Positions 643-16,044 of a DNA stretch of 16,044 nt are shown here, piece by piece. The stretch is from a virus (Duplodnaviria; Heunggongvirae; Uroviricota; Caudoviricetes), in IMG/VR virus record IMGVR_UViG_2718217897_000010, positions 1 to 16,044 of that record. One strand, written 5' to 3'. A program made the translations under genes and the position numbers. The first letter of the stretch is position 1; every line of letters starts with the position of its first letter. The notes under the pieces are model-generated. The model saw only the letters and a program-made list of their open reading frames with translations. It searched no databases and was not told the origin of the DNA.

Positions 643-1153
643 CTGCCATTCCGATTTGTCTAACTTATTTAGAATTAAGAGGTTGAAATTAAGAATAGAT
701 AATCATACTCACTACGGGCTTTGAATTTTGATATTACAATTATTTCATTTTATTTTCAATTAATTATACGTTATTTATTGAACAAGTTTCCATGCCCTCA
801 GTTAACCAAAATGTCCGTTTCTAGCACACAGCAGCCCTATAGACAGTGGAGTAAAGTCATGGAGGATCGGTGGGAGGAGATGCAAATCCTCTCATACAAA
901 AAATACGTAAAATCTATAACAGCTGGAAATCATTCAATACTCGCACTATTGGAAGTTCACCAGCCAACCGCAGCACGTTCTTGCATACGACGTGCCTGCG
1001 GTTTCAACTCCCGCCAGCTCCACCAATCATGATTGGGTGGCGTAAGGATAATACCAACAAAAACAGCAAGTTATCAGTCCAAGCAGGACACCAACCAGAC
1101 GGTGAGGATACAAAAAAAGATACGCAAAGGAGCCGCGGTGCCCTAGTGACTTG

Positions 1154-1176
1154 AAAGCCCACAGATGTGGGCTTTT
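1154..1176 (+). terminator. putative rho-independent terminator (stem AAAGCCCAC / GTGGGCTTT, loop AGAT, followed by TTTTAT)
   Basis: Perfect 9-bp inverted repeat with GC core read directly from sequence; T-run on the plus strand. Not attached to any convincing upstream gene. Confidence 0.4.
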
Positions 1177-1368
1177 ATGGAATAAAGTACTTGAACCAAC
1201 AGCAAGAAATCAGTCTTGATGCTAAGTACTAGTGATGAAGCCACAACAACTGCTCTCATAAAAACGAAGACACTTATCGTGCCACCATCAAAATCTTTGT
1301 GAGTGTATCCATTTCTTTTTACTTGAACAGAGAAAACAATAATGCTGCTTATTTGCACAGTAAAATAA

Positions 1369-1388
1369 TACTGTATACAAACACAGTG
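1369..1388. promoter_or_regulatory. LexA (SOS) box-like operator TACTGTATACAAACACAGTG
   Basis: Matches the CTGT-N8-ACAG core and 16 of 20 positions of the E. coli LexA consensus TACTGTATATATATACAGTA. Overlaps plausible -35/-10 hexamers on both strands (plus strand TTGCAC-17-TACAAA). Confidence 0.5.
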
Positions 1389-1587
1389 TAGAGGAAGTTT
1401 TATGCATATTCCAACTAGCATGAATGTCTTTCTGTCATAAAATTAATGTCTGTTATAAGCAGTGAGCCCAACCGATGCATGCAGCACATAGCGAACCCAA
1501 ATTACAGCCTTTACAGCCACTATTGTTCACCATTAGACAGATGCGAACATTTTCCTGTATGAAGATATTTAGACTGCTTTTATTTGT

Positions 1588-2685
1588 CTAAAAATTCTCT
1601 CTCTTGTGCTGCATTTTACTCTTATTTTCAAGCATAAGAAACATTGCTGCATTTTGCTCCCAAGATATTTTAGATAAAAACATTTTTTTAGAAAATGATT
1701 GTTCCAATTCTCCCAAAAACGAATCAAGCCACCAATAATATTCCCATCCCTTAGTTGTTAATAAAGACTTGGCATTAAAATCCACTGTAACTACCAAACC
1801 TACTGAATAAATTGAAAATGAATTAAACTCTCTACCCAAATAAAGATTTCCAAATTTCATTGGTAGATTAGCCCCGAATCCCTCGAACACAGGGCGATAA
1901 TTAATCTTAAATCTTTTAGTAACAATACTTATACTAGAGTCGCTCTCTCTTGTGAGCGAACTACTTTTGGGAAGAACTATTTCAAAATGGTCAAAAATTG
2001 CGCCTCCATTGCCATATGCATATACAACTTTACCTATAGATGGTAAAGAACTATAATCCATAAATTGCTCACGTTCATCCATAGCTCTAGAAAAAGTATC
2101 AATAAATCTATTCCCCATAAGAACATCAGGAATACTTTTCCTATCTAGTTTAACCAAATAATCATCGGAAAAAGTTTCATCATCATTAAAATAGCTACTT
2201 AAATGAAGAGCAAGTTTTCTTAAAACATAATACTCAATCGCCTCAATAAATAGTGCATTTGCTTTCATTTTTTTGCTATTTATCCCCTTCCCTTTAAAAT
2301 CAAAAGCATAACCAATTGGCCCCTCAGTCCATGATTTATGAATAGCCTTATTTTCCGCGCATAATCCTTTTAGGTAACGGCTAACCTCTTCGGAAAAATC
2401 GTAGCCTTCAATTGATATCAACTCTTTTTTTTCATTGTCTAAACACACAACCCCCTCAAAATCATATTTCCCATTATTCATAGGATAGGCGTTACGCAGA
2501 AAGATTGTGGCACCTAAAATTATTAGTAGCGCACCAACAACAATCATTTTCAAAAATGACAAGTTAAAATAACCAACAACGCCTGATGACAGTATATTTA
2601 CGCCCAAGGCAATTAACACCGCAACAATGAACACTTCGAATATATTTGTTTTAACGGCTAGTAGATCTGCTATTTTTTTCTTCAT
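1588..2685 (-). CDS. hypothetical membrane-anchored protein (365 aa): two N-terminal TM helices plus ~300-aa soluble domain
   Basis: Long ORF in an AT-rich block. N-terminus MKKKIADLL followed by hydrophobic segments FIVAVLIALGVNILSSGVVGYF and MIVVGALLIILGATIFL. No recognisable catalytic motif. Confidence 0.6.
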   Translation of the reverse strand: MKKKIADLLAVKTNIFEVFIVAVLIALGVNILSSGVVGYFNLSFLKMIVVGALLIILGATIFLRNAYPMNNGKYDFEGVVCLDNEKKELISIEGYDFSEEVSRYLKGLCAENKAIHKSWTEGPIGYAFDFKGKGINSKKMKANALFIEAIEYYVLRKLALHLSSYFNDDETFSDDYLVKLDRKSIPDVLMGNRFIDTFSRAMDEREQFMDYSSLPSIGKVVYAYGNGGAIFDHFEIVLPKSSSLTRESDSSISIVTKRFKINYRPVFEGFGANLPMKFGNLYLGREFNSFSIYSVGLVVTVDFNAKSLLTTKGWEYYWWLDSFLGELEQSFSKKMFLSKISWEQNAAMFLMLENKSKMQHKRENF

Positions 2686-2739
2686 AGTGCACCCAATCCA
2701 ACTTATACTCTCATCATTAGCCTACGGCCAAACTCAAAT

Positions 2740-2757
2740 TTGCACTCTTATGTGCAA
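2740..2757. promoter_or_regulatory. inverted repeat TTGCAC-N6-GTGCAA in the upstream region of the 365-aa gene (possible operator)
   Basis: Palindromic hexamers read directly, 55-70 bp upstream of the ATG at 2685 (minus strand). Function is inferred only. Confidence 0.2.
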
Positions 2758-3085
2758 TTGGACCCTCAACACTACAACTTTTATATCTTTATTACAATGC
2801 ATTAAATATAGAGTAGTTAGCTAAGTGCAACGATAGGACAGAATTGTACCCGAAGCACAATATCTACAAACGGTTTAACATTAGTTGCAAGTGCGGACCA
2901 CTTTTTCTATCTGCCTATATTTTCAGGCTGCTGCTGGTCGGTAGTTTCTATGTATAGCCGCTTTCACCGTCAATGACGCATAAAGTCTATCTTTCCCTAC
3001 TTACTGATGAATCAGAACGCGACATTCCACTCATCCTCAGAATCCCTCAGAAGGTTCAATATAACGCCAAGCACCGAAGTTCCGC

Positions 3086-3424
3086 TTATGAGTGAACATG
3101 ATGAACAACTATATCTTGCCCTGTTCTATGGGGATACCAACCACAATAGTGGGACAAACCGCCATTAATTAACTCATGCTCTAAATCTTCGTCCACCAGC
3201 ACGACAAGATGCCGCATACTGCGCCCCAGTCGGTCCAGTTTCCAGACCACCAGCGTATCACCTGCCGATAATGTCCTGAGCAGTTTTTTCAGTCCAGGCC
3301 TTTCGGACTTTGTACCGCTTATCTTGTCTTCAAAAATCAGCTCGCATCCTGCACAGTTCAGCGCATTACGTTGTAGATCTGTGTTCTGGTCATTTGTTGA
3401 CACACGTACATAGCCAATAAGCAT
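3086..3424 (-). pseudogene. DNA invertase (serine recombinase, Hin/Gin/Pin family), 3'-truncated
   Basis: Translation from the ATG at 3424: MLIGYVRVSTNDQNTDLQRNAL...GDTLVVWKLDRLGRSM, the classic invertase N-terminus including the catalytic Ser in RVSTNDQ. The ORF stops after ~112 codons and the C-terminal HTH DNA-binding domain is missing in all frames. The track ORF start at 3460 adds 12 non-homologous residues. Confidence 0.75.
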
Positions 3425-3450
3425 GGTAGATCTCCCTGACAAAAGCAGGA

Positions 3451-3843
3451 ATGATGCCATTTGCTCGTTATTTCTGCATTTTCATAAACGTTGGTTTGGG
3501 AGAAGCGGCCAAATTGCCTGCGATTAGTGGCTCTTTATCATCATCTGGCTGGATAAAAATCCCTGTTATAGAGGGGAAGTCTTTTATTATCCAATGGGGA
3601 AGAATCGGACCTTCTGATAGTAAAACTGGTGTTGCAACAGGAAGTTATCCTATTGCTTTTCCAAATTCTGCATTTATGGCATTTATTGCTGAAAAAACCG
3701 CAGTATCCACAGGCCCAATAGGTATTAATTCCTGGGGAGTATCCGAACTAACAAAAACAGAATTAAAGGCCATTTGTGCTGCAAGGACTATATCAACTTC
3801 AGCCGCAACTGAAACAGGTGATTTTCTGGTACTGGGATATTGA
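3451..3843 (+). pseudogene. side tail fibre C-terminal (variable, receptor-binding) segment; lacks the 5' constant part
   Basis: Contains IIQWG and PIAFPN motifs typical of lambdoid/Mu-type tail-fibre C-termini. Begins at the crossover site. Its stop overlaps the start of the downstream tail-fibre assembly gene (ATGA). No upstream constant tail-fibre region is present on this strand. Confidence 0.6.
3479..3504. other. invertase crossover site-like 26-bp imperfect palindrome (hix/gix/pix-like)
   Basis: TTTTCATAAACG-TT-GGTTTGGGAGAA. The reverse complement TTCTCCCAAACCAACGTTTATGAAAA matches about 20 of 26 positions of hixL as I recall it (TTCTTGAAAACCAAGGTTTTTGATAA). It lies next to the invertase gene and inside the 5' end of the tail-fibre segment, as expected for such switches. 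Confidence 0.45.
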
Positions 3844-4313
3844 GCTTCCATAAGGATTATAAAATGTCGAGCATAATATACTACAGCTCTATAAATAATG
3901 CATTTTACCCTGAGCATTTGAAACAAGAATATATTAAATCTAATTCTTTTCCAGCAGATGCAAAACCCGTTAAATATTCTGTTTTCGAAGAATTTGCACT
4001 TAAACCAGCACCAGAAGGAAAATACAGGTGCGTTGGTGAAGATGGAATGCCATCATGGGCAGATATTCCACCACCAACACATGAGGAACAGATTGCCGCA
4101 GCCGAATTGAAAAAGCAGCAATTGATTAACCAGGTCAACGAATACATGAACAGTAAACAATGGCCCGGTAAAGCGGCTATTGGTCGTCTGAAAGGTGAGG
4201 AACTGGCGCAATATAATCTGTGGCTGGATTACCTGGACGCACTGGAAATGGTCGATACTTCCAGTGCTCCAGATATTGAATGGCCTACGCCTCCGGCAGT
4301 TCAGGCCAGATGA
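3840..4313 (+). CDS. tail fibre assembly protein (Tfa family)
   Basis: 157 aa. N-terminus YYSSINNAFYPEHLKQEY and C-terminus LWLDYLDALEMVDTSSAPDIEWP are typical of Tfa/gpU-type chaperones. Translationally coupled to the fibre segment upstream. Confidence 0.8.
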   Translation: MSFHKDYKMSSIIYYSSINNAFYPEHLKQEYIKSNSFPADAKPVKYSVFEEFALKPAPEGKYRCVGEDGMPSWADIPPPTHEEQIAAAELKKQQLINQVNEYMNSKQWPGKAAIGRLKGEELAQYNLWLDYLDALEMVDTSSAPDIEWPTPPAVQAR

Positions 4314-4722
4314 CATCTGGCGCGGTGCTGGTATCAGTTGCCGTCACCGCGTCAATGTAATCCAGCACAGCGTTAAGGCGGGTTGTTTCTGTCTGCGTCA
4401 GTTTACGTCCGGCCTGCAATTTCAGTTGAATCAGACTGATGGAAGCCATTGCTGCATCAATTAGTAACTGGCGCTGTGCTTCTGCCGCGTCTACTGCGGC
4501 ACTGTGTTGTGCCTCAGTGTCTGTCACCCATTTCTCACCATCCCATTTATCGTATGGCGTTAACGGTGAAAGCGTGACATAACCGTCTTTGATGGCACCG
4601 ATATAATCCACTGTAACAGCTGCGCCATTTTCGATTGAGTAAACAGTCTCATTGCGATGGTCTTCTTCATGGCTCCATCCCTTACCTGTAAATATTGGCA
4701 TGGGGTAAGATTTCCGGCTCAT
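4285..4722 (-). CDS. tail fibre assembly protein (Tfa family), second copy in opposite orientation
   Basis: 145 aa. C-terminus AVLDYIDAVTATDTSTAPDVIWPELPEA is the conserved Tfa motif. Converges on the plus-strand Tfa with a 29-bp 3' overlap, as in Mu G / e14 P invertible segments. Confidence 0.75.
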   Translation of the reverse strand: MSRKSYPMPIFTGKGWSHEEDHRNETVYSIENGAAVTVDYIGAIKDGYVTLSPLTPYDKWDGEKWVTDTEAQHSAAVDAAEAQRQLLIDAAMASISLIQLKLQAGRKLTQTETTRLNAVLDYIDAVTATDTSTAPDVIWPELPEA

Positions 4723-5222
4723 GATTCGTTAATTTTCAGAAACGGGTTAGTGGCTTTCTTCTGCCCCGCCAGGCCAATCAGACGCTGGCGGCTGCTGGGG
4801 TCGAGTCCGAGCATTGCCCCCGTGCTGCTCATCTCGGACTCCTGTTCTTTTTTGGCGGTCAGCTCCGGATTTTTGACCCTGCCGCCCATTGCACCGGTGA
4901 TGGTGTTGCCCTGTATGGCAATATTTTTCACGGCACGTCGCCAGAACTCATAGGCCACGCACCACCGCTCAAGTACCGCCAGGTCAGTCACGCACAGCAG
5001 ACCCTGACCGCAGAGTTCTTTGGTTGTCAGTTGCCACATGATCGTGGCGAGAGGGAGATCTTCTTCAGCGAACCACTCCGGTGGCTCAACACCTTTGATG
5101 GGCGTAAAAACAGGTTCATCTTTGTTCAGGGCTCGCTTGCCGGGGTTTCCGGCCAGCGCCTTGCGCGCCGTTGGCTTGGGGCGACGCCCGGAACGCCCCG
5201 CCGTTCCAGCCATATGCGGCAC
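4719..5222 (-). CDS. phage terminase small subunit (P27-family-like)
   Basis: 167 aa. N-terminus MAGTAGRSGRRPKPTARKALAGNPGKRALNKDEP is characteristic of P27-type TerS. Its stop overlaps the start of the Tfa gene (ATGA), so no large terminase or structural genes follow. Confidence 0.65.
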   Translation of the reverse strand: MPHMAGTAGRSGRRPKPTARKALAGNPGKRALNKDEPVFTPIKGVEPPEWFAEEDLPLATIMWQLTTKELCGQGLLCVTDLAVLERWCVAYEFWRRAVKNIAIQGNTITGAMGGRVKNPELTAKKEQESEMSSTGAMLGLDPSSRQRLIGLAGQKKATNPFLKINES

Positions 5223-5338
5223 TCCTGGTTAAATTTCATTTTTCGCGGGTATAAAAAAACGATGGGGCGGGCAGTCCGGAAGACGTCAGGCCGCAGGGAT
5301 TTGACCCGCCCCTCCCCTCAAGCAGTTGAGAATTATTA
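5223..5338. other. putative cos / packaging-initiation region between HNH and terS
   Basis: Intergenic, with GC-rich inverted repeat GGGGCGGG (5264-5271) ... CCCGCCCC (5305-5312). HNH-cos-terS is the usual order in HK97-like cos phages (from memory). Confidence 0.3.
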
Positions 5339-5689
5339 TCACTTCAACCGTTCACGGGCCGTCTTCGCCTTATGACACGGCCAGCACAGACTCTGCAGAT
5401 TACGGTCGGCATCAGTGCCGCCATGCGCTTTAGGAATGATGTGGTCAACGGTTTTCGCCTCGCGCACCACACCGGCACGCAAACACAACTGACACAGGCC
5501 TTTGTCACGCTTCAGCACACGCGCGCGGATAACGTCCCACTTCGAACCATAACCGCGCTGATGACGGGATTGTCCTGGCTTGTATTGCTTCCAGCCTTCG
5601 CCTTTGTGTTGCTTGCAATAACCTGACGGGTCTGTGGTTGTCGATCGGCAGCCGCGAACACGGCAGGCTTTTGGTGTTCGTGGTGGCAT
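5339..5689 (-). CDS. HNH endonuclease (phage packaging-associated)
   Basis: 116 aa. Cys pairs CRVRGC and CQLC, plus DHIIPKAHGG ... NLQSLCWPCH, make up an HNH/zinc-finger motif. Located immediately upstream of terS. Confidence 0.8.
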   Translation of the reverse strand: MPPRTPKACRVRGCRSTTTDPSGYCKQHKGEGWKQYKPGQSRHQRGYGSKWDVIRARVLKRDKGLCQLCLRAGVVREAKTVDHIIPKAHGGTDADRNLQSLCWPCHKAKTARERLK

Positions 5690-5764
5690 TGAAATATTCT
5701 CTCTGATACTGCTCGCACGATATGCATAAAAACCTCCAACAGGCGGTTTATGTGTAGACGTATC

Positions 5765-6676
5765 TCAGTACTTAAATAAGAATTTGCTATTACTTTGAAA
5801 TTGAGATGGTGTGGTTGCAATCGGACTAGATGTCGCAGCTATCTCTTCAAGTAACTCAGCTTTCCAGACATGCCCTAGTTGCAAAGATTCACTATGCGAC
5901 ACTTTGTATTCTGCAGCACTAACGACTTGTTCTAAGAAAAGATCACTGTTTAGCATTTGCATACTTGCATAAACGCCAAGGAAATGAATTTTCATTCCCA
6001 TATCCATGATCATATTCCCTTCTTTTGTAAGATAACCACTGTGCGTGACATAGAATGCCGGAGAGCCTGACATTCCAGGGAAAGCAGAAATATCGACAAC
6101 TATTAATTTCTTCCCATCGAAATCGATATCTGGCTCACTCGCTAAGCTTCCTGTTTTCCATATTGGAAGGTAGTGAGTCGTGTCATGATAACCATGAGGA
6201 TATCCAATCATTACAACAGGAGATGAGGGGTTTATCTGGACATTAGGCAGTGTCGTTGTTTTTGAGACTACTTTTACTCCTGTGTTTACAAACAACTCTT
6301 GAGGCAAAGGCATCAAGATAATGTCTGCCTCTTTATCTGTGGGGTGCTCCAACCACAGCGGTGAACCATCTTTAAACAGAGGCATCGTATGTTTGAATAG
6401 TTTTCCGGTTTTATCTCTCAGCTGAATATCAATACTATCGCCTATAAATGGCTTTACACCCCTTTCGGATGGGCTGATTCCAGTTATTACATGATAGTTA
6501 GTTGCAAGGAAAATGAAACCATTGCTATGTTGATAAAAGAACCCAGTACCTAACGACTTTGACTCTCCATTAGACCTCAAAATTACTAAAGTAGTTACCA
6601 GAGATAGCGGCTGTACGTTTTGCATAAAATTCATCCAACATGAACTTCGATATAGGTTGTAAAAGCATACAATCAT
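5765..6676 (-). CDS. trypsin-like (chymotrypsin-fold) serine protease, cytoplasmic; start codon uncertain
   Basis: Candidate catalytic triad in the canonical order: His in ATNYHVITG, Asp in EADIILMPL, Ser in GMSGSPAF (GDSGGP-like). No signal peptide. AT-rich. Alternative starts at internal Met15 or Met18 (MNFMQNV). Confidence 0.6.
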   Translation of the reverse strand: MIVCFYNLYRSSCWMNFMQNVQPLSLVTTLVILRSNGESKSLGTGFFYQHSNGFIFLATNYHVITGISPSERGVKPFIGDSIDIQLRDKTGKLFKHTMPLFKDGSPLWLEHPTDKEADIILMPLPQELFVNTGVKVVSKTTTLPNVQINPSSPVVMIGYPHGYHDTTHYLPIWKTGSLASEPDIDFDGKKLIVVDISAFPGMSGSPAFYVTHSGYLTKEGNMIMDMGMKIHFLGVYASMQMLNSDLFLEQVVSAAEYKVSHSESLQLGHVWKAELLEEIAATSSPIATTPSQFQSNSKFLFKY

Positions 6677-6742
6677 TCCAGAAAATTCTTAACCAACTAT
6701 TTCCAATATATGAATCGCCAATTCCGATCTAGCTATATAACC

Positions 6743-7015
6743 TCACTTTTCAGCAGAGTTTTTCTCCGAAAGCAGGTGCTCACTCTTTCTAATGTCTAAC
6801 TTATCCCTATTACAAGACGCCAGCGCCGACAACAGGCTTACGTTCAAATCCAGGCTCCCACTCCATGTCAGCGGGTCGGGGATAGCTGGTTGCGGAGTTT
6901 CAGCGGTCAGATTCGCTAGTAGTGGTACCGCCGAAACTGGTACGTAAACTGTCCGCGTACCGGCGCAGCCGTTCAGCTGCACGAGCAGGAACAGGACGGG
7001 CAGCGCAATCATCAT
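6743..7015 (-). CDS. Rz1-like o-spanin (outer-membrane lipoprotein), overlapping the 3' end of Rz in a different frame
   Basis: MMIALPVLFLLVQLNGC followed by a proline-rich mature region (VPVSAVP, TPQPAIPDP). Starts inside Rz and runs past its stop. Lipobox LNGC is non-ideal and the signal peptide lacks a basic residue; the start may instead be the in-frame ATG at 7081. Confidence 0.4.
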   Translation of the reverse strand: MMIALPVLFLLVQLNGCAGTRTVYVPVSAVPLLANLTAETPQPAIPDPLTWSGSLDLNVSLLSALASCNRDKLDIRKSEHLLSEKNSAEK

Positions 7016-7292
7016 TCGCAAAAGCCATTTTGATATCAGCCTGGGTTCTCTGTGACTCCAGTGCGATCTGCTGTTTTGCATGCTGGTTAGCCTCCAGTAC
7101 TGTATTGACGATTTGTAGTGATTGCAGGACGTTATTAGTAATGGCAGTTGCCGATTTGGCATTTTGTACAGCCTCATCAGCACGTTTCTTTTCGTGCTGA
7201 TATTTGCTGTAGTAGTGGTTGGTTGACCAGATGAAAGAACAGACGACAGTTAAAAGGAAAGCAGCGATAATCAGCTTATAGCTCAACTTCAT
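6900..7292 (-). CDS. Rz-like i-spanin
   Basis: 130 aa with one N-terminal TM helix (LIIAAFLLTVVCSFIW) and a charged, probably coiled-coil periplasmic domain. Immediately downstream of the endolysin and overlapping it. Confidence 0.55.
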   Translation of the reverse strand: MKLSYKLIIAAFLLTVVCSFIWSTNHYYSKYQHEKKRADEAVQNAKSATAITNNVLQSLQIVNTVLEANQHAKQQIALESQRTQADIKMAFANDDCAARPVPARAAERLRRYADSLRTSFGGTTTSESDR

Positions 7293-7752
7293 TTACCACC
7301 CCACCAGCCTCTTTAAACCTGGCAATCAGGTCACCGATTTTATGTTCATACTGACCATAACCAGCGCCCGGCAGTGAAGCCCAGATATTGCTGCAACGGT
7401 CGATTGCCTGACGGATATCACCGCGATCAATCATCGGTAAAGCGCCACGCTCTTTAATCTGCTGTAATGCCACGGAGTCCTGGCTTCTGGGAGAGAAGTC
7501 TTTCAGCCCTAGCTGCTTGCGGTAGGCATCCCACCAACGGGAAAGAAGCTGGTAACGTCCGGCTGCTGTTGATTTGAGTTTCGGGTTTAGCGTGACAAGT
7601 TTGCGAGGATGATCGGAGTAATCAGTAAACAGTTCACCACCGACAATGACATCATAACCGTGGTTACGTGTCGGTTGTCGCCCGTTATCCGTTCCTTCTG
7701 ACCATGCAACCATATCCAAGAAAGCTTTACGCTGGGAATTTAGTGCCTGCAT
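7276..7752 (-). CDS. R: endolysin, lambda R-like lytic transglycosylase
   Basis: 158 aa. NSQRKAFLDMVAWSEGTDNGRQPTRNHGYDVIVGGELFTDYSDHPRKLVTLNPKLKS ... is near-identical along its length to lambda R as I recall it, including the catalytic Glu in WSEGT. Confidence 0.9.
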   Translation of the reverse strand: MQALNSQRKAFLDMVAWSEGTDNGRQPTRNHGYDVIVGGELFTDYSDHPRKLVTLNPKLKSTAAGRYQLLSRWWDAYRKQLGLKDFSPRSQDSVALQQIKERGALPMIDRGDIRQAIDRCSNIWASLPGAGYGQYEHKIGDLIARFKEAGGVVNEVEL

Positions 7753-7755
7753 AAA

Positions 7756-8082
7756 TTACTCCTTCGAGCTACCAAATTTGTTACCGATTACTCGCATTGC
7801 AGCCCCACGAATTGCATCGACACCAATCAGCCCAACACCGCCACCAATGGCAACAGAAAGAGATTTAGGCCATCCGACATACTCAAGAGCGGATGCAAAA
7901 GTCAGCGTCAGAGCACCACAGAGCAAAATCTCGAGCGTTTTTCGTTTCCAGCCACCACCACCGCCAAAATAGGCAATGCGCAAGCCAGCCATAACGATCG
8001 ACATAATCACTGCGCCCAGCGGTGTGTCTCCACGCCACCAGCTCTGGAACAACTCCAGCCAGGTATTTGGGTTATGAGGCAT
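7756..8082 (-). CDS. holin (class I, three TM segments, lambda S-like size)
   Basis: 108 aa with three hydrophobic segments and a charged C-terminus (NKFGSSKE). Sits directly upstream of the endolysin with 3-bp spacing. Confidence 0.7.
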   Translation of the reverse strand: MPHNPNTWLELFQSWWRGDTPLGAVIMSIVMAGLRIAYFGGGGGWKRKTLEILLCGALTLTFASALEYVGWPKSLSVAIGGGVGLIGVDAIRGAAMRVIGNKFGSSKE

Positions 8083-8234
8083 TTGTAGTTATCTCTCACC
8101 TCGCTGATACAGCAGGTGCAAATTGAGGGAACATCATGTACAGCAAATTAGAAGCGGAAACGTCAAAGAAGCCGAACCAATGGATAACTGCGGAATAGAC
8201 CAGGACCAACGAATCCCCAGCCCCAGAAACGACA

Positions 8235-8256
8235 AAACCCGCTCGACGGCGGGTTT
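8235..8256 (-). terminator. putative intrinsic terminator on the minus strand upstream of the holin (tR'-like position)
   Basis: Hairpin AAACCCGC-TCGACG-GCGGGTTT. On the minus strand the GC stem is followed by TTTTGTCGTTTCT. Confidence 0.35.
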
Positions 8257-8367
8257 AAGCTGTGTGGCGAAGTAACCACTCTTAACACGATACAATAATT
8301 TTTGCGTACGCGTTAGCGTTTTTGTAAGATTAACAAATAAATCGAAAAATCATAATCGGATGATTTC

Positions 8368-9390
8368 ATGGCAAAATTAAATGCTAGCGAAAGACTCGTT
8401 ACTCATCATAGTCTGACCATTGACACAAAGTTTAGAACCAAGGCAACACAAGAGGTAAAAGCCCAGTGTATATGTCCTGTTCCGGAAATGTACATGCTTG
8501 CCCCATTGATTGTTAAACAAAAGGGACTCGTTCATTCATATGATTCTGGGAATATTGTAGTTACTCTCCAAGATGTACAACTTTATCCTTTACTTCCAGA
8601 TAACTCACCCACGCATATTGTCCTTCTTATTAATAGTGTTGATAAAAATGGAAGTACTACCGTTGTAAAAAATATAAATACTAATGAACGCGTTGAAATC
8701 CAACCAAAATATGAACAAGGTGAAGGCTATGAAGTTTCTACCTATGTTGTCATATCATTAAATGGAAATAAAAGAACCTATGATATGATTTGTACATCTA
8801 CCCCAGGTGTATCTACGGCCCGGTTAAATAGTTTTTTAGACAAAATTCTCTTTGAAGTGGCGAAAGACAATGAAGACTTATTTACCGCAAAACATCCAAC
8901 TAACGTTATTTCTGCAACATCAAAAAAAGAAGTAAAAATACGATACAAACCAATATTTGAATTTACAGGAATGTTAGACAAGGAGCTTTTTAATAAAATA
9001 AGCCAAAAAGGATTATCAGATGTCATATTAGTCAAGGATCAATTCGGAACAATTAATGCTCCTGATGTTAACTCACCTTACATTCCGACTGAAAGTACAT
9101 TAAAATTACTTCCAAATCATGGTGACAATGTTATTGGATGGATTAAAAATGTAGCATCTCATTTCAATAAAAAAATGAATGGTGGTTATGATAAATTAAA
9201 GGTTAAATTCCAAGATCCTGAAACAAATAAACCAAGGCAGGTTGATTTCAAAACCTCAAACATCAATCTTAATAATTTAGAAAAAACATTTATTAAGAAA
9301 AGCATTATCGATAACTTTAATTCGCGCCTGAAGGATTCATATGTTAAAATTGAGCTAGAGTTTGTTGTGAAAATGATAGATTTGATGTGA
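8368..9390 (+). CDS. hypothetical soluble protein (340 aa), first gene of an AT-rich two-gene cargo operon
   Basis: ORF with ATG at 8368. Strongly AT-rich, Asn/Lys/Ser/Thr-rich, no TM segment, no recognisable NTPase, nuclease or NTase motif. 7-bp gap to the downstream gene, which has its own SD (GTGAGG). Confidence 0.6.
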   Translation: MAKLNASERLVTHHSLTIDTKFRTKATQEVKAQCICPVPEMYMLAPLIVKQKGLVHSYDSGNIVVTLQDVQLYPLLPDNSPTHIVLLINSVDKNGSTTVVKNINTNERVEIQPKYEQGEGYEVSTYVVISLNGNKRTYDMICTSTPGVSTARLNSFLDKILFEVAKDNEDLFTAKHPTNVISATSKKEVKIRYKPIFEFTGMLDKELFNKISQKGLSDVILVKDQFGTINAPDVNSPYIPTESTLKLLPNHGDNVIGWIKNVASHFNKKMNGGYDKLKVKFQDPETNKPRQVDFKTSNINLNNLEKTFIKKSIIDNFNSRLKDSYVKIELEFVVKMIDLM

Positions 9391-9397
9391 GGTTATT

Positions 9398-9982
9398 ATG
9401 CCAATACTTTCAGTTTTCTCTCATCTAGGCAAGCCGTTTGGATATCTTTTTATTAAAGGTATTAGCGGCAAAGCTGCATATGATTGGGTAGCGCCAATTC
9501 TACTTACTTCTATCACAGCAGTACTTTTCATTCTATTAAAAATCCCTGTCAAAGATTTATTTGATGACAATGGTTTCATTAAATCAATCGTTTCATTTAT
9601 CTCTAACCTACCAGGGTTTTATATTGCCGCTCTGGCCGCCATAGCAACTTTCAATAGAGCTGAGATTGATTTACCATTGATTAGCAATGAAAGAAATGCC
9701 TCTATTGAAATAAAAGTAACAAAAGAAAATGGAAAAGTAGTAAATTCAGAGGAGGTTCTGACCAGACGATTATTTCTTTGCATGCTATTCTCTTTTTTAA
9801 CAGCATTAAGCATTGTTATAATAATACTTAATGCTATATTTTCACCATTAATCAATGTCTATCAAAACAGTTTTGTTTTAATGGTTTATACTGTTGTATT
9901 TACTTTCCTCGTTTGGCAACTCTTAGTATCAACTTTCTTTGGATTATATTATCTCGGAAACAGAATTCATATGAATTATTAA
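9398..9982 (+). CDS. hypothetical integral membrane protein (194 aa, four predicted TM helices)
   Basis: Hydrophobic segments at about residues 30-49, 64-85, 125-148 and 159-186, with a ~40-residue charged loop between TM2 and TM3. Coupled to the upstream 340-aa gene. Confidence 0.6.
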   Translation: MPILSVFSHLGKPFGYLFIKGISGKAAYDWVAPILLTSITAVLFILLKIPVKDLFDDNGFIKSIVSFISNLPGFYIAALAAIATFNRAEIDLPLISNERNASIEIKVTKENGKVVNSEEVLTRRLFLCMLFSFLTALSIVIIILNAIFSPLINVYQNSFVLMVYTVVFTFLVWQLLVSTFFGLYYLGNRIHMNY

Positions 9983-10002
9983 GCCCTACAGGGGCTTAAT
10001 AA
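9976..10002. repeat. 11-bp perfect inverted repeat TTATTAAGCCC-TACAG-GGGCTTAATAA spanning the stop codons of two convergent genes
   Basis: Read directly. The left arm contains the TAA stop of the 194-aa gene (9980-9982) and the spacer/right arm contains the TAG stop of the Q-like gene (9986-9988). Confidence 0.6.
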
Positions 10003-10378
10003 TCAACAAAATACCTTCAATCACTCCTATTGCTGCTTGAAGTTGTTTTCTGATTGACCCGTCAGAGCATTTCCGTTTCTTTGCTATTGAACGGAGTGAA
10101 ATACCGATAACAAAGTGAGCAATGATCAGTTCATATTCTTCTGGCTTATATTTCCGCATTCGCGCAACACAGCTGTCAATCATGATTCCTTCATCATCAT
10201 CGCATTGTTGGCGTGTTTTCTTTCCATGAGGTAGTAAACCTTTAAACCCTGCAGCAACAGGCTGCCAGTCCACACCACTGTTAACCGCGGGAAAATTTCC
10301 GAAGAAGACACCACCGAAACGCCGATGTATGTCAATCGCGGTGGTCGCCTGACTATTCTGCAGGAAGACCAGGGACAA
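9986..10378 (-). CDS. Q-like late antiterminator (phage 21/QuuD-type); non-ATG (TTG) start, possibly defective
   Basis: 130 aa containing AAGFKGL, CDDDEGIMIDSCVARM and CSDGSIRKQLQAAIGVIEGIL, which resemble phage-21-type Q proteins as I recall them. The ORF begins with TTG directly after an in-frame TAA; the first internal ATG is at codon ~66. Confidence 0.5.
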   Translation of the reverse strand: MSLVFLQNSQATTAIDIHRRFGGVFFGNFPAVNSGVDWQPVAAGFKGLLPHGKKTRQQCDDDEGIMIDSCVARMRKYKPEEYELIIAHFVIGISLRSIAKKRKCSDGSIRKQLQAAIGVIEGILLIIKPL

Positions 10379-10497
10379 TTACTGACTCTTGCCGGTGAGC
10401 CTGACGGAAAATTACGCGCAGCAGGTCATTAATATCGTTCTTAATTAACTGATTATTTATCTCATCACTGAATATCTTTATATAGTGAGGACTTATT

Positions 10498-11322
10498 ATG
10501 TCTCAGAACTTAGACGCAACCGCAATTAATCAAATCCATGCCCTTATTTCTGCTCAGGGTGTTAATGAAATTATCAGTAAGATTGGTGCCGATGCTGTGG
10601 CATTGCCTGAGAATTTCCGCATTCATGATCTGGAAAAATTTAATTTAAATCGCTTCCGTTTCCGTGGTGCGCTTTCCACTGCCAGCATCGATGACTTTAC
10701 CCGTTATTCTAAAGATCTTGCAGATGAAGGCACCCGCTGCTTTATCGATGCTGATAATATGCGTGCCGTCAGTGTACTTAACCTGGGTACTATTGATGAA
10801 CCAGGTCACGCAGATAACACCGCCACTCTCAAACTGAAAAAGACAGCACCGTTCTCTGCCCTGTTGTCTGTTAACGGCGAGCGTAACTCCCAGAAGTCAC
10901 TGGCAGAATGGATCGAAGACTGGGCCGACTACCTTGTGGGCTTTGATGCTAATGGTGATGCCATTCAGGCAACAAAAGCGGCTGCGGCAGTCCGTAAAAT
11001 CACGATTGAAGCAAACCAGACCGCTGATTTTGAAGACAATGACTTCAGCGGCAAACGCTCCCTGATGGAGTCTGTCGAAGCGAAGACCAAAGATATTATG
11101 CCTGTGGCATTTGAATTTAAATGCGTTCCGTTTGAAGGCCTGAAAGAACGTCCGTTTAAATTACGCCTCAGCATTATCACTGGCGATCGTCCTGTACTGG
11201 TTCTGCGCATTATTCAGCTGGAAGCAGTGCAGGAAGAAATGGCTAACGAATTTCGTGATCTGCTTGTTGAGAAATTCAAGGACAGCAAAGTAGAAACCTT
11301 TATTGGTACTTTCACCGCCTGA
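10498..11322 (+). CDS. DUF2303 / YfdQ-like prophage early-region protein
   Basis: 274 aa with good SD (GTGAGGA). Sequence resembles the CPS-53 prophage YfdQ family (from memory). Confidence 0.7.
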
Positions 11323-11334
11323 TTTCATTACTGC

Positions 11335-11356
11335 AAATGCCCCTGCGGGGGCATTT
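11335..11356 (+). terminator. putative terminator hairpin AAATGCCCC-TGCG-GGGGCATTT after the YfdQ-like gene
   Basis: 9-bp perfect inverted repeat 13 bp past the stop. The T-run is short and partly inside the stem, so strength is uncertain. Confidence 0.35.
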
Positions 11357-11449
11357 ATGGAAACGTAATTGACTCAATAATCGCCGGATGGTGAGGGCTT
11401 CCTTTTACCAGAATTCAGCGCGGTGCAGCGCATATACGTGGAGAACAAA

Positions 11450-11986
11450 ATGTCATTTATTAAAACTTTTTCCGGGAAGCATTTTTATTATGACAGGATA
11501 AATAAAGACGACATCGTTATTAACGATATCGCGGTTTCTCTTTCAAATATCTGTCGCTTTGCAGGGCATCTTTCACATTTCTACAGCGTTGCCCAACATG
11601 CGGTGCTTTGCAGCCAACTGGTACCGCAGGAATTTGCTTTTGAAGCGTTAATGCATGATGCAACAGAAGCGTATTGCCAGGACATCCCGGCGCCACTGAA
11701 ACGCCTTCTTCCTGACTATAAACGGATGGAAGAAAAAATAGATGCAGTAATCCGTGAGAAATACGAGTTGCCCCCGGTTATGAGCACGCCTGTGAAATAT
11801 GCCGATCTAATCATGCTGGCAACCGAACGCCGTGATCTCGGGCTTGATGATGGCTCTTTATGGCCTGTACTGGAAGGTATCCCGGCAACAGAGATGTTCA
11901 AAGTTATTCCACTGGCACCGGGCCATGCCTACGGGATGTTTATGGAACGCTTCAACGAGTTATCGGAATTACGCAAATGTGCATAA
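11450..11986 (+). CDS. HD-domain metal-dependent phosphohydrolase (YfdR-like 5'-deoxynucleotidase family)
   Basis: 178 aa from the ATG at 11450, preceded by GGAGA. Contains the HD motif in ALMHDATEAY. The track ORF start at 11423 is GTG and adds 9 residues. Confidence 0.75.
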   Translation: MSFIKTFSGKHFYYDRINKDDIVINDIAVSLSNICRFAGHLSHFYSVAQHAVLCSQLVPQEFAFEALMHDATEAYCQDIPAPLKRLLPDYKRMEEKIDAVIREKYELPPVMSTPVKYADLIMLATERRDLGLDDGSLWPVLEGIPATEMFKVIPLAPGHAYGMFMERFNELSELRKCA

Positions 11987-12855
11987 CTCATGTAGTTAGT
12001 TTTTCTGGCGGGAGAACATCCGCATATCTTGTTCACCTGATGGAAGAACAAAGAAAGGCTGGCAATAACGTCTGCTACATCTTTATGGATACCGGTTGCG
12101 AACATCCGCTGACATACCGCTTTATCCGGGAGGTTGTGAAGTTCTGGGACATACCACTAACTGTGTTACAGGTCGATATAAATCCTGAGCTTGGGCAGCC
12201 AAATGGTTATACAGAATGGGAGCCAAAGGATATTCAGACACGAATGCCGGTGCTTAAACCGTTTATGGACATGGTTAAAAAGTACGGCACGCCATACATC
12301 GGCGGCGCGTTCTGTACTGATAGGCTAAAACTCATCCCTTTCACGAAATACTGCGATAACCATTTCGGGCGAGGTAATTACATCACATGGCTGGGTATTC
12401 GTGCAGACGAACCCCGTAGGCTGAAACCGAAATCGGGCGTCCGGTATCTTGCCGAGCTGTCAGATTTTGATAAGTCGGATGTTATCCGGTGGTGGCGAAA
12501 ACAACCTTTTGATTTGCAAATCCCGGAGCATCTCGGGAACTGTGTTTTCTGCATCAAAAAGTCAACGCAAAAGCTGGGGCTTGCATGTAAAGACGAACCA
12601 GGTCTGATGCGAGTTTTTAATGAGCTGGTTACAGGCAAACACGTCAGGGATGGTCATCGCAGAACAGGTAAAGACATTATGTACCGTGGTCACCTGACGC
12701 TTGACGGAATTGCCAGAATGTCTGCCAACAGCGACTACAGAAATTTGTATCAGGCGATGGTACAGGCCAGGCGATTCGATACCGGCTCGTGTTCAGAGTC
12801 ATGTGAAATCTGGGGTGATCAATTGGAATTGGAATTCAAAGAGGTAGGGGTATGA
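11977..12855 (+). CDS. PAPS-reductase-like (PP-loop ATP pyrophosphatase superfamily) protein
   Basis: PP-loop motif SFSGGRTS near the N-terminus. Start MCITHVVSFSGG at 11977 overlaps the upstream stop. C-terminal cysteines (CVFC, CSESC). Confidence 0.7.
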   Translation: MCITHVVSFSGGRTSAYLVHLMEEQRKAGNNVCYIFMDTGCEHPLTYRFIREVVKFWDIPLTVLQVDINPELGQPNGYTEWEPKDIQTRMPVLKPFMDMVKKYGTPYIGGAFCTDRLKLIPFTKYCDNHFGRGNYITWLGIRADEPRRLKPKSGVRYLAELSDFDKSDVIRWWRKQPFDLQIPEHLGNCVFCIKKSTQKLGLACKDEPGLMRVFNELVTGKHVRDGHRRTGKDIMYRGHLTLDGIARMSANSDYRNLYQAMVQARRFDTGSCSESCEIWGDQLELEFKEVGV

Positions 12856-13196
12856 CAACCGAAATTAACTACCATGCACTGCTTGAGCGCGCACGGAATA
12901 AAGTGCAGAGCATTGAGTTCGCCTTAACACAGAGTGCATTCGCTGAGATTCGCGCTGAGCTTGAAAATGATTTAGAACTGGCACGGATTGCACTGGCATC
13001 TCTGGAAGTTGAGCCAGATGAACGCGCAGCCTATGAATTATTTATGGAAAAGCGTTTCGGTAAAACAGTCGATCGTCGGAGAGCAAAAAACGGCGATAAC
13101 GAATACATGGCATGGGATATGACTCTCGGTTGGATCGTCTGGCAGCAACGAGCTGGTATCCATTTTTCAACAATGTCACAGCAAGAGGTGAAATAA
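12852..13196 (+). CDS. hypothetical early-region protein (114 aa)
   Basis: Translationally coupled on both sides: ATGA overlap with the upstream gene and TAATG overlap with xis. Confidence 0.55.
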   Translation: MTTEINYHALLERARNKVQSIEFALTQSAFAEIRAELENDLELARIALASLEVEPDERAAYELFMEKRFGKTVDRRRAKNGDNEYMAWDMTLGWIVWQQRAGIHFSTMSQQEVK

Positions 13197-13546
13197 TGGA
13201 GCCATACAGCCTCACACTCGATGAGGCCTGTCATTTTCTCAAGATATCCAGACCGACTGCCATTAACTGGATACGCACAGGGCGTCTTCAGGCAACACGC
13301 AAAGATCCCACTAAGAATAAATCTCCTTACCTCACAACACGACAAGCCTGCATTGCGGCTCTTCAGTCTCCGCTGCATACTGTCCAGGTGAGCGCGGGTG
13401 ATGGCATAACAGAGGAAAGAAAATGTCACTCTTCCGCAGAGGTGAAATATGGTACGCCAGTTTCACATTGCCGAACGGTAAAAGATTTAAACAGTCTCTT
13501 GGAACAAAGGACAAAAGGCAGGCGACAGAACTCCATGACAAGCTAA
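13196..13546 (+). CDS. xis: excisionase (P22 Xis-like)
   Basis: [38 protein letters not shown] is an HTH excisionase N-terminus. About 116 aa, overlapping the 5' end of int in another frame, as in P22. Confidence 0.7.
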
Positions 13547-14586
13547 AGGCTGAAGCATGGCGGGTCAGCAAACTTGGTGAAATACCTGATATAACGTTCG
13601 AGGAAGCGTGTGTCAGGTGGCTTGAAGAGAAAGCACATAAAAAATCACTGGACGATGACAAAAGCCGGATCGGATTCTGGCTTCAACATTTCGCAGGAAT
13701 GCAACTAAGAGACATTACTGAATCAAAAATTTATTCAGCAATGCAGAAAATGACGAACCGGCGTCATGAGGAAAACTGGAAACTCAGGGCAGAAGCATGC
13801 AGAAAAAAAGGGAAACCTGTTCCAGAATACACGCCAAAACCAGCGTCCGTTGCAACGAAGGCTACGCATCTTTCATTTATAAAGGCCCTACTAAGAGCCG
13901 CAGAGCGTGAATGGAAAATGCTGGATAAGGCACCAATTATTAAAGTGCCTCAACCAAAGAATAAACGGATCCGCTGGCTGGAGCCCCATGAAGCACAAAG
14001 GCTGATTGATGAATGTCCGGAGCCATTAAAGTCTGTTGTTGAATTTGCACTGGCAACAGGCTTAAGACGCTCGAACATCATCAACCTTGAATGGCAACAA
14101 ATAGACATGCAGCGCCGGGTGGCATGGATAAACCCGGAAGAGAGTAAATCAAACCGCGCAATTGGCGTTGCGCTGAATGATACTGCATGTCGCGTATTGA
14201 AAAAACAAATCGGGAATCATCACCGTTGGGTATTTGTGTACAAGGAAAGCTGTACCAAACCAGACGGAACGAAAGCGCCAACGGTCAGGAAGATGCGGTA
14301 TGACGCAAACACAGCCTGGAAAGCGGCGCTGAGACGGGCTGGTATTGATGATTTCAGATTTCACGACTTGAGACACACCTGGGCAAGCTGGCTGGTTCAA
14401 GCCGGAGTCCCGTTGTCAGTGTTACAGGAAATGGGAGGCTGGGAGTCTATCGAAATGGTTCGTCGATATGCTCACCTTGCACCTAATCACCTTACCGAAC
14501 ACGCACGGCAAATAGACTCGATCCTGAACCCATCGGTCCCAAATTTGTCCCAGTCAAAAAATAAGGAAGGTACTAATGATGTGTAA
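13423..14586 (+). CDS. int: tyrosine site-specific integrase (P22 Int-like, 387 aa)
   Basis: N-terminus [49 protein letters not shown]-terminal catalytic region [39 protein letters not shown] carries the conserved H-x-x-R and Tyr. Ends 14 bp from the tRNA 3' end. Confidence 0.9.
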
Positions 14587-14600
14587 CTTATTGATTTAAA

Positions 14601-14676
14601 TGGTGCCGATAATAGGAGTCGAACCTACGACCTTCGCATTACGAATGCGCTGCTCTACCAACTGAGCTATATCGGC
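14601..14676 (-). tRNA. thrW: tRNA-Thr (anticodon CGU)
   Basis: The reverse complement folds as a canonical cloverleaf: acceptor stem GCCGATA/TATCGGC, anticodon loop TTCGTAA, T-arm GGTTCGACTCC, 3' CCA encoded. Confidence 0.95.
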
Positions 14677-14790
14677 CCTGAAAGGACATGTTCACGAACG
14701 TGAATCACGGTGGACAAGGTTAAAACTAACCGGGCGATGCGTCAATGGCCTTGTGAATCAAATGGCTACTTTTGCATCACCCGGTTTTAT

Positions 14791-16044
14791 TTACGCACGA
14801 ATGGTGTAATCACCAATGCCGATCCACTTGTAAGTGGTCAGTGCTTCCAGCCCCATTGGGCCACGTGCGTGCAGTTTTTGTGTGCTTACCGCCACTTCCG
14901 CACCCAGTCCAAACTGGCCGCCGTCGGTAAAACGCGTAGAGGCGTTAACGTAAACAGCGGACGAATCCACTTCGTTAACAAAACGCTGGGCGTTGCGCAT
15001 ATCGCGGGTCAGGATCGCATCGGAGTGTTGCGTGCCGTGTTCACGAATATGGGCGATGGCATCGTCAAGATCGCTGACGATTTTGACGTTCAAATCTAAT
15101 GACAGAAACTCATCGTCATACTCTTCGGCTTTAACCGCCACCACCTTCGCGGGGCCTGCCTGCAACTGTGTCAGCGCAGCTGCATCTGCGTGTAATGTCA
15201 CGCCGCTTTCCGCCATTTGTTTGCTTAATACGGGCAGGAAGCTATCGGCGATGTTTTTATTCACCAGCAACGTTTCTACCGTATTACATGTGCTCGGACG
15301 CTGAGTTTTGGCGTTGACGATCACTTTTAATGCTTCAGCGATCTCTGCACTTTCATCAACGTAAATATGGCATACGCCTATACCACCTGTGATCACCGGG
15401 ATCGTCGACTGTTCGCGGCACAGTTTATGCAAACCAGCGCCACCACGCGGGATCAGCATGTCGATGTATTTATCCATACGCAGCATTTCACTGACCAGCG
15501 CACGGTCAGGATTATCAATCGCCTGCACGGCACCCGCCGGTAAGCCGCAGGATTTCAGGGCGTCCTGAATCACCGCCACCGTTGCAGCGTTAGTGCGACA
15601 CGTTTCTTTGCCACCGCGCAGGATCACCGCATTACCGGTTTTCAGGCACAGCGAAGCGACATCAACCGTCACGTTCGGGCGCGCTTCATAAATCACGCCA
15701 ATAACCCCCAGCGGTACGCGACGACGCTCAAGACGCAGGCCGCTGTCCAGTACGCCGCCATCGATTACCTGCCCCACCGGATCGGCGAGGTTGCACACCT
15801 GACGTACATCGTCGGCAATGCCTTTCAGCCGTGCGGGCGTCAGTGCCAGACGGTCAAGCATCGCTTCGCTAAGGCCATTGGCTCGCGCGTCAGCAACATC
15901 CTGGGCGTTAGCGTTGAGGATGATTTCGCTTTGTGCTTCCAGTTCATCGGCGATTTTTTCCAGCACGCGATTTTTTTCGCGGCTGGAGAGTTGCGCTAAT
16001 TTATACGAGGCTTGCTTCGCGGCAATGCCCATTTGTTCCAGCAT
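14791..16044 (-). CDS. proA: gamma-glutamyl phosphate reductase
   Basis: 417-aa [41 protein letters not shown] ... matches E. coli ProA along its full length (from memory). The ATG is at the window edge (16042-16044). Confidence 0.95.

Follow-up and report, generated by a model that had tools for sequence, protein, structure and literature searches.

What do the four genes upstream of the excisionase and integrase genes of a prophage remnant encode, and do two of them form an enzyme pair? The genes occupy positions 10498 to 13196 of a 16,044-nucleotide stretch of Caudoviricetes DNA (IMG/VR record IMGVR_UViG_2718217897_000010, positions 1 to 16,044), which is called the window throughout. An earlier note on this DNA described them as an early accessory operon with a DUF2303 protein, an HD-domain phosphohydrolase and an enzyme resembling phosphoadenosine phosphosulfate (PAPS) reductase, and proposed the two enzymes as a pair for anti-defence or for modification of DNA or the nucleotide pool. 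Our analysis shows that the order is yfdP'(truncated)-yfdQ-yfdR-ninC-yfdT'-xis-int, and the gene identities and the mosaic history of the locus are nearly certain. The pairing of the HD protein with NinC is a recent mosaic and not a conserved enzyme pair. On balance, the region 10282–14586 appears to be the promoter-distal end of the early-left operon of a lambdoid prophage of the SfV/CPS-53 type at thrW. The yfdQ-yfdR-yfdT cluster has already been described and partly characterised; in this copy a ninC gene of the lambda type stands in for yfdS.

All four open reading frames (ORFs) are intact and lie on the plus strand upstream of xis-int. The product of the first is 99.3% identical to YfdQ of K-12 and matches the DUF2303 model PF10065 over residues 7–272 of 274 (309.7 bits, cutoff 26.6, E 2e-92). 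The second is 97.2% identical to K-12 YfdR over all 178 amino acids. It belongs to phrog_318 (E 2e-108) and matches the HD protein in PDB entry 2gz4 (E 9e-12), with which its metal-binding residues H49, H68-D69 and D118 align. RefSeq names the K-12 protein a 5'-deoxynucleotidase, and the window protein stays below the cutoffs of two models of the housekeeping enzyme YfbR (PF12917, 24.8 vs 25.9 bits; NF003009, 20 vs 122 bits). The third protein shares 79.4% identity with lambda NinC across 98% of its length and is about 93% identical to 'NinC' of phages that convert their hosts to Shiga toxin 2a (Stx2a) production. It matches phrog_424 and phrog_33262 (E ~2e-90) and, with its N-terminal part only, PF01507 (35.3 bits, cutoff 22.5). 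The product of gene 4 is 83% identical to K-12 YfdT over 81 amino acids, and in its last 69 residues it shares 94% identity with SfV orf28; the first ~45 residues are unrelated to YfdT and have another origin. YfdS was also considered for gene 4 and was rejected, as there is no similarity. These comparisons bear out the three family calls of the earlier note, including the kinship of the HD protein with YfdR. The orthologues found are characterised prophage proteins and not housekeeping enzymes.

The window is 99.4% identical, over the aligned stretch from 10282 to 16044, to enterotoxigenic Escherichia coli (ETEC) H10407. The prophage in that genome is apparently complete and reads repressor gene, two small ORFs, yfdP, yfdQ, yfdR, ninC, yfdT', xis, int, thrW. 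Both in H10407 and in SfV the cluster belongs to the leftward early transcript and is flanked by the repressor gene on one side and by xis-int on the other, which is the accessory position that the earlier note had assigned to it. Order, spacing and orientation upstream of xis-int are also the same in yfdPQRST of CPS-53 (KpLE1) and in orf32-orf28 of SfV, but where they have yfdS (DUF551) and the first third of yfdT, the window has ninC and a foreign N-terminus. In addition, yfdP is truncated in the window, and the integration site is thrW and not the argW of CPS-53.

The boundaries of this replacement were located by blastn against K-12 and SfV, which gave breakpoints at 11984/11985 and 12986/12987. 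The insert of ~1 kb consists of ninC plus about 120 bp and takes the place of yfdS and of the 5' end of yfdT. Bases 11975–12864 are 89% identical to the ninC gene of an Stx2 phage, and the ratio of nonsynonymous to synonymous substitution rates (dN/dS) between the two copies is 0.088, which indicates purifying selection. The gene begins where yfdS begins in K-12, overlapping the yfdR stop codon; the yfdS gene of SfV overlaps yfdR likewise. Judged from these breakpoints, the arrival of ninC was a typical cassette swap at a gene boundary. A related protein of 294 amino acids (P0021), which is 86% identical to the window NinC over 88% of its length, also has a match to DUF551 (PF04448). Since DUF551 is the YfdS domain, this suggests that ninC has recombined with genes of the yfdS type at the locus.

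The distribution of the arrangement is narrow. We found yfdR-ninC-yfdT' in 285 of 5,426 complete E. coli genomes; the query also contains the 3' end of yfdR, and 2,960 of the genomes match it at least in part. NinC beside YfdR or YfdQ is confined to one E. coli prophage cluster, in which the NinC proteins are at least 85% identical, and among 50 non-redundant NinC loci no HD or DUF2303 gene neighbours ninC outside this cluster. Stx2a-converting phages also have a DUF2303 gene near a 93% identical ninC in their early-left operon, as in Escherichia phage Lyz12581Vzw (4552–6879), where the two follow exo and ssb and are separated by an unrelated ORF of 147 amino acids and not by an HD gene.

The NinC family, taken up to E 1e-3, comprises about 1,600 clusters at 50% identity. 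Its PP-loop motif reads SFSGGRTS in the window protein. In an alignment of 40 diverse homologues C113, C189, C272 and C276 are invariant and C192 is conserved in at least 90%. Further invariant or nearly invariant motifs are S10/G12/S15, DTGxEHPxT, C113/K118, GIRADEPxR, GNC189xxC192 and C272SESC276E, and all 23 invariant columns are kept in the window NinC. An AlphaFold2 model of high confidence (predicted local distance difference test, pLDDT, 90.3) was compared with solved structures using Foldseek. CysH and APS (adenosine phosphosulfate) reductase came first, followed by the [4Fe-4S] sulfur-transferases LarE, TtuA and NcsA, and by MnmA. The best match in the defence profile library PADLOC was SspD (E 1.3e-14), followed by BrxP (3e-4) and DndC (5e-3). 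With regard to the question raised in the earlier note, whether the protein sides with DndC/QueC-like or with CysH-like proteins, SspD is the closest defence profile, the match to DndC is weak and the cutoff of the CysH equivalog model is not reached.

The PP-loop N-terminal half of NinC matches the SspD profile and, weakly, that of DndC, and both families are rich in cysteines. Unlike SspD and DndC, the window protein has no sspABC or dndADE neighbours, its C-terminal half does not align, and it is borne by a phage and not by a host defence island. No cysteine desulfurase, DndD/SspC ATPase, or DndE/SspB domain is encoded near ninC, neither in the window nor in the 50 non-redundant loci. The assignment of NinC as DndC proper was rejected because of the weak profile match and the lack of partner genes. 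The PDB entry 21fy ('PptA') was also set aside; it matches the NinC profile in the PP-loop only (E 6e-6), and a literature search did not identify the entry.

In 80 viral contigs with a NinC relative the gene was found in three settings: as yfdP-yfdQ-yfdR-ninC, in close E. coli relatives only; as ninB-(dam)-ninC-...-ninG in lambda-like nin regions; and as a single polypeptide, in which NinC is fused to a DNA adenine methyltransferase. Pfam analysis of long family members revealed Dam-NinC and NinC-Dam fusions (PF05869) and NinC joined to a D12-class methyltransferase (PF02086); the fusions therefore arose in both orders and with two methyltransferase families. A Dam-type methyltransferase is fused to or near ninC in 15 of 78 viral loci with a NinC ORF, so that a sizeable minority of loci has such a partner. 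Within two positions of ninC, the 50 non-redundant loci carry genes for DnaB, helicases, PolA, NinB, NinG, RusA and SSB, and the flanking DNA methylases are of the C5 type in five loci and of the Dam type in three. In lambda itself ninC lies between ninB and ninD, in the nin region that is transcribed rightward in the delayed-early phase and follows the replication genes, and it encodes a protein with the size and motifs of the window protein. The window ninC, unlike that of lambda, is part of a leftward early operon next to xis-int; the copies in Stx2a phages are early-left too, after DUF2303. The lambda gene is also accessory, being non-essential (PMC10695390), which agrees with the view of the earlier note that these are not core phage functions.

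This context and the family motifs bear on three other explanations of NinC. We consider it very unlikely that YfdR and NinC have co-evolved as a pair of early enzymes which remodel the nucleotide or sulfonucleotide pool (deoxynucleoside monophosphates, dNMPs; PAPS or APS) for anti-defence. The 10-nt overlap of yfdR and ninC, which are probably co-translated, would fit such a pair, as would the annotation of YfdR as a 5'-deoxynucleotidase and the membership of both proteins in nucleotide-handling superfamilies. However, the adjacency is limited to the one E. coli cluster, HD and DUF2303 neighbours are missing elsewhere and NinC is found there in nin and replication modules; furthermore, at the yfdR/ninC junction one cassette has cleanly replaced another along a gene boundary, and yfdS holds the same position in K-12 and SfV. 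PAPS is also an unlikely substrate, given the canonical ATP-type PP-loop and a score of 20.5 bits against the NCBIfam CysH equivalog PRK02090, whose cutoff is 154. The latter result makes it hardly credible, too, that NinC is a CysH-like PAPS/APS reductase and an auxiliary metabolic gene of sulfate assimilation. This is the meaning of the PGAP name 'phosphoadenosine phosphosulfate reductase family protein' and of the PHROG category 'auxiliary metabolic gene', and CysH and APS reductase are indeed the closest solved structures. Yet these PDB proteins align only with NinC residues ~4–70, that is with about 65 N-terminal residues. CysH carries a C-terminal catalytic motif of the ECGLH type; it is absent from NinC, which conserves GNCxxC and CSESCE instead, and the context is replication, recombination and DNA methylation and not sulfur metabolism. 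A third explanation, that NinC thiolates or otherwise modifies RNA (tRNA) in the manner of TtuA, NcsA or TtcA and has no link to DNA defence, seems rather improbable to us, if less so than the other two. Foldseek lists TtuA (5mkp), NcsA (6scy), MnmA (2der), TilS/MesJ (1ni5) and the [4Fe-4S] protein LarE, and the combination of a PP-loop with conserved cysteines is in line with such enzymes. But the matches of the TtuA, NcsA and MnmA type rank below CysH and APS reductase and cover the Rossmann core only (TM about 0.3–0.4). The fusion partners and neighbours of NinC are DNA methyltransferases and replication or recombination genes and not RNA-handling proteins, and the best profile in the defence library is that of a DNA-phosphorothioation enzyme, SspD.

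From homology and the fusions, NinC is in our view probably a PP-loop enzyme of the ATP-pyrophosphatase type with a cysteine-ligated Fe-S cluster; the fusions and neighbourhoods suggest that its action probably involves DNA, as target or partner, and an adenine methyltransferase. A clue to its purpose comes from a Vibrio phage. Over 96% of its length, NinC shares 55% identity with the PAPS domain of p0018 of Vibrio phage 44E38.1, a protein listed under the name 'Dam methyltransferase with PAPS reductase domain' (Piel et al., bioRxiv 10.1101/2021.05.05.442762). When p0018 and the adjacent p0019 were moved to a related phage, the latter infected a host whose Dnd system had blocked it (bioRxiv 10.1101/2021.05.05.442762). 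In a later paper 'Anti-Dnd' appears among the anti-defence systems whose mechanism is unknown. The two proteins have the PP-loop and the cysteine motifs in common; p0018 has a C-terminal Dam domain, whereas the window NinC has no methyltransferase domain and the remnant keeps no phage methyltransferase. Homology, the fusions and this one experiment are consistent with NinC probably serving escape from phosphorothioate-based restriction of the Dnd/Ssp type. For the stand-alone protein we regard an anti-Dnd/Ssp role as a tentative proposal that is rather less than probable. Still more speculative is the specific version, in which stand-alone NinC, including that of lambda, would work with a Dam-type methyltransferase of phage or host to install or mimic a sulfur mark on DNA that blocks Dnd/Ssp restriction, and in this operon would share an early transcript with YfdR as an inhibitor of host replication that targets DnaA. 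The suggestion of anti-defence in the earlier note is thus retained, by homology, for NinC only; it is not retained for YfdR, for which DnaA binding takes its place.

YfdR has a published function, which is binding of DnaA and inhibition of initiation in the host; no role in dNMP-pool or defence chemistry has been shown for it (PMC4776307). The genes yfdQ-yfdR-yfdS-yfdT were isolated as a multicopy suppressor of over-initiation in an hda-185 mutant (Noguchi and Katayama, PMC4776307). Either yfdQRT or yfdQRS in multicopy inhibits initiation at oriC in several backgrounds, and extracts inhibit oriC replication in vitro. Purified K-12 YfdR binds DnaA in dependence on Phe46 of domain I, and it moderately inhibits the binding of DiaA and of DnaB to DnaA. 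The same paper describes YfdR as a weak nucleotidase with nucleotide affinities much below those of YfbR, and its authors suggest a role in host takeover in the ancestral phage (PMC4776307). The fold and the residues H...HD...D are common to YfdR and E. coli YfbR; unlike YfbR, YfdR is borne by a phage and, to judge from the K-12 protein, would bind DnaA. Of the two sets that were sufficient, the one with Q, R and T has its counterpart in the window, where the T-like gene is a chimera. By analogy with the K-12 orthologues in multicopy, YfdR, aided by YfdQ and YfdT, would bind domain I of DnaA and compete with DiaA and DnaB, and initiation at the host oriC would be damped as a consequence. We give even chances to this role of YfdR being a physiological one. 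In the intact phage, the early-left transcript made after induction or infection would deliver these two unrelated accessory functions, of YfdR and of NinC, ahead of xis-int. A further candidate role for YfdR, scavenging of the m6-dAMP alarm signal of the PUA-Calcineurin-HAD defence, was set aside as speculation; the relevant paper reports DNA-mimic inhibitors and no phage nucleotidase.

Full-text literature searches for DUF2303 and YfdQ returned no functional study beyond the 2016 DnaA paper (PMC4776307). In a sequence search YfdQ matched PDB entry 9o7m, 'YfdQ protein', which has 36 chains (E 1e-44); a literature search found no paper for this entry. An AlphaFold2 model of moderate quality (pLDDT 74.9) gave no Foldseek match in the PDB below E 0.1. 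If 9o7m is a large homo-oligomer, it would be the first structural clue to the function of DUF2303.

Several points weigh against these interpretations of NinC and YfdR. The TM-scores (template modelling scores) between NinC and solved structures are low, 0.3–0.5, with only the Rossmann core in common, and the SspD match is limited to NinC residues 5–152 against positions 2–125 of a 277-position profile. No biochemical activity has been shown for any member of the NinC family, no Dnd or Ssp system is known in the host, and our literature search found no paper that links lambda NinC itself to Dnd escape. In the Vibrio experiment two genes were moved and the PAPS domain was fused to Dam, so that its own contribution was not isolated (bioRxiv 10.1101/2021.05.05.442762). 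Deletion of yfdQRST has no replication phenotype, which again marks these genes as accessory, and the YfdR effect is seen on multicopy plasmids only, for which the authors allow an overexpression artefact (PMC4776307). The sets that were effective in that study held yfdS or yfdT, and the YfdT' of the window is a chimera. Finally, expression in this strain is doubtful, as a scan of the plus strand from 9900 to 14700 found no sigma-70-like promoter; the same scan gave two sites, both on the minus strand, compared with 7.8 expected from shuffled sequences.

The doubt about expression is connected with the state of this copy of the prophage. To the left of 10282 the window stops matching the H10407 prophage; here yfdP runs into a truncated gene for the Q antiterminator, which is encoded on the other strand. 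The two are joined head-on near 10283; the 'Q' ORF as listed, at 9986–10378 (-), begins with ~32 codons of antisense yfdP, and the Pfam match of the truncated Q gene covers profile positions 19–112 only. This Q'/yfdP' junction (~10283) was not found in any of the 5,426 complete E. coli genomes (0/5,426), and it is therefore either a recent, strain-specific deletion or possibly an assembly join. The 5' part of yfdP and everything upstream of it in the intact prophage, including the repressor gene and the early-left promoter region, are gone. The losses extend to the immunity region, to the genes for replication and to most of those for morphogenesis. Beyond Q' the remnant holds a two-gene insert of low GC content, genes for holin, lysozyme and Rz, a trypsin-like peptidase, an HNH protein, the small terminase subunit, tail-fibre assembly and a truncated invertase. 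The small terminase gene at 4719–5222 (-) directly adjoins the tail-fibre-assembly genes at 4285–4722 (-) and 3840–4313 (+), past which a truncated resolvase/invertase gene is located at 3086–3460 (-). Because the head and tail morphogenesis region is deleted between these genes (3086–5222), the prophage is defective.

It follows that the cluster could be inert cargo, stranded in a dead prophage without a promoter and serving no function in this strain at present. We regard this as a serious possibility, though somewhat short of an even one. It accords with the truncation of yfdP, with the loss of the repressor and promoter region and of replication and most morphogenesis genes, with the lack of a promoter-like site on the plus strand and with a deletion junction that is unique among the complete genomes. 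On the other hand, all six ORFs are intact and the DNA is nearly identical to that of an apparently complete prophage; in addition, CPS-53 of K-12 is equally cryptic, and deletions of its yfdQ and yfdS nevertheless give sensitivity to hydrogen peroxide and methyl methanesulfonate (cited in PMC4776307). The inert-cargo explanation concerns present expression and is compatible with the accessory functions that we propose for what the genes encode. Since the upstream promoter region has been lost, the operon is probably a recently stranded and largely silent remnant.

The coordinates on which this account is based are collected in Table 1. Similarity of int and xis to those of SfV, together with the thrW tRNA gene, identifies the region as the integrase end of a lambdoid prophage inserted at thrW; the tRNA gene next to proA marks the end of the prophage and its attachment site. 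Two gene starts differ from the program-made ORF list. For yfdR we took the ATG at 11450, which is preceded by GGAG and is the start used in RefSeq, and the listed GTG at 11423 is an unlikely start. For ninC the start at 11977 follows the family alignment and RefSeq; the listed version of 331 amino acids begins inside yfdR.

Table 1. Features at the integrase end of the prophage in the window.
Feature	Position	Strand	Basis
yfdP 3' fragment, last ~50 codons	10282..10432	+	Translation equals the K-12 YfdP C-terminus; homology to K-12, SfV and ETEC H10407 begins at 10282
yfdQ, DUF2303 protein, 274 aa	10498..11322	+	PF10065, phrog_210, K-12 orthology
9-bp GC-rich stem-loop in the yfdQ-yfdR spacer	11335..11356	+	Sequence reading, centroid fold, inverted repeat
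yfdR, HD-domain phosphohydrolase, 178 aa	11450..11986	+	phrog_318, K-12 orthology
ninC, PP-loop (PAPS_reduct superfamily) protein, 292 aa	11977..12855	+	Lambda NinC orthology, PF01507
Mosaic insert replacing yfdS and the yfdT 5' end	11985..12986	+	blastn breakpoints vs K-12 and SfV
yfdT-like gene, 114 aa	12852..13196	+	C-terminal part is YfdT; phrog_660
xis, excisionase, 116 aa	13196..13546	+	Pfam HTH_17; phrog_2907, E 1e-50; 98.3% identical to SfV Xis
int, tyrosine integrase, 387 aa	13423..14586	+	Pfam Phage_integrase, E 3e-48; 98.5% identical to SfV Int
tRNA-Thr(CGT), thrW	14601..14676	-	ARAGORN, Rfam; same layout in ETEC H10407
proA	14791-16044	-	Reaches the window end

The earlier note had described all four genes as translationally coupled. 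This holds for three junctions, at which the genes overlap: yfdR and ninC by 10 nt, ninC and gene 4 in ATGA, and gene 4 and xis in TAATG. It does not hold for yfdQ and yfdR, which are separated by 127 nt, with identical spacing in K-12, and by the hairpin listed in Table 1. This hairpin may be a weak terminator or an element of mRNA stability; no T-run follows the stem, and it was not called in the terminator scan. A scan of 9800–14800 for RNA genes detected the tRNA-Thr only, and the short repeats in the same interval look like chance matches.

The rest of the window contains several genes that resemble defence candidates. Between the Q fragment and the holin gene is a pair of low-GC genes (31–33%) at 8368–9390 (+) and 9398–9982 (+), in a slot that is occupied by a KAP-family NTPase gene in the ETEC H10407 prophage. 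The pair matches the PADLOC candidate defence system PDC-M53 (M53A, E 2e-32; M53B, E 3e-54), and neither protein has a Pfam match above the family cutoff. A trypsin-like peptidase of 303 amino acids (PF13365), encoded at 5765–6676 (-) between the lysis genes and the HNH and small terminase genes, matches the single-gene defence candidate PDC-S45 (E 6e-42). Two further low-GC ORFs, at 1588–2685 (-) with 365 amino acids and at 1–642 (-) with 213 amino acids, have no Pfam match, and the latter has a marginal PADLOC match to PDC-S50 (E 8e-4). Both may be further prophage cargo.

The window itself is of little significance, since it holds a decayed copy of a described cluster, for which annotation in hundreds of E. 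coli genomes is routine. The by-product of its analysis is a sharper and testable hypothesis for ninC of lambda, which combines the similarity of the protein to SspD as its nearest defence profile, the fusions to and neighbourhood of methyltransferases, and a homologue in an anti-Dnd module. If NinC is an enzyme that counters phosphorothioate-based defence, this would provide a function for a classical orphan gene of lambda. It would also supply a mechanism for the 'Anti-Dnd' entry among the anti-defence systems.

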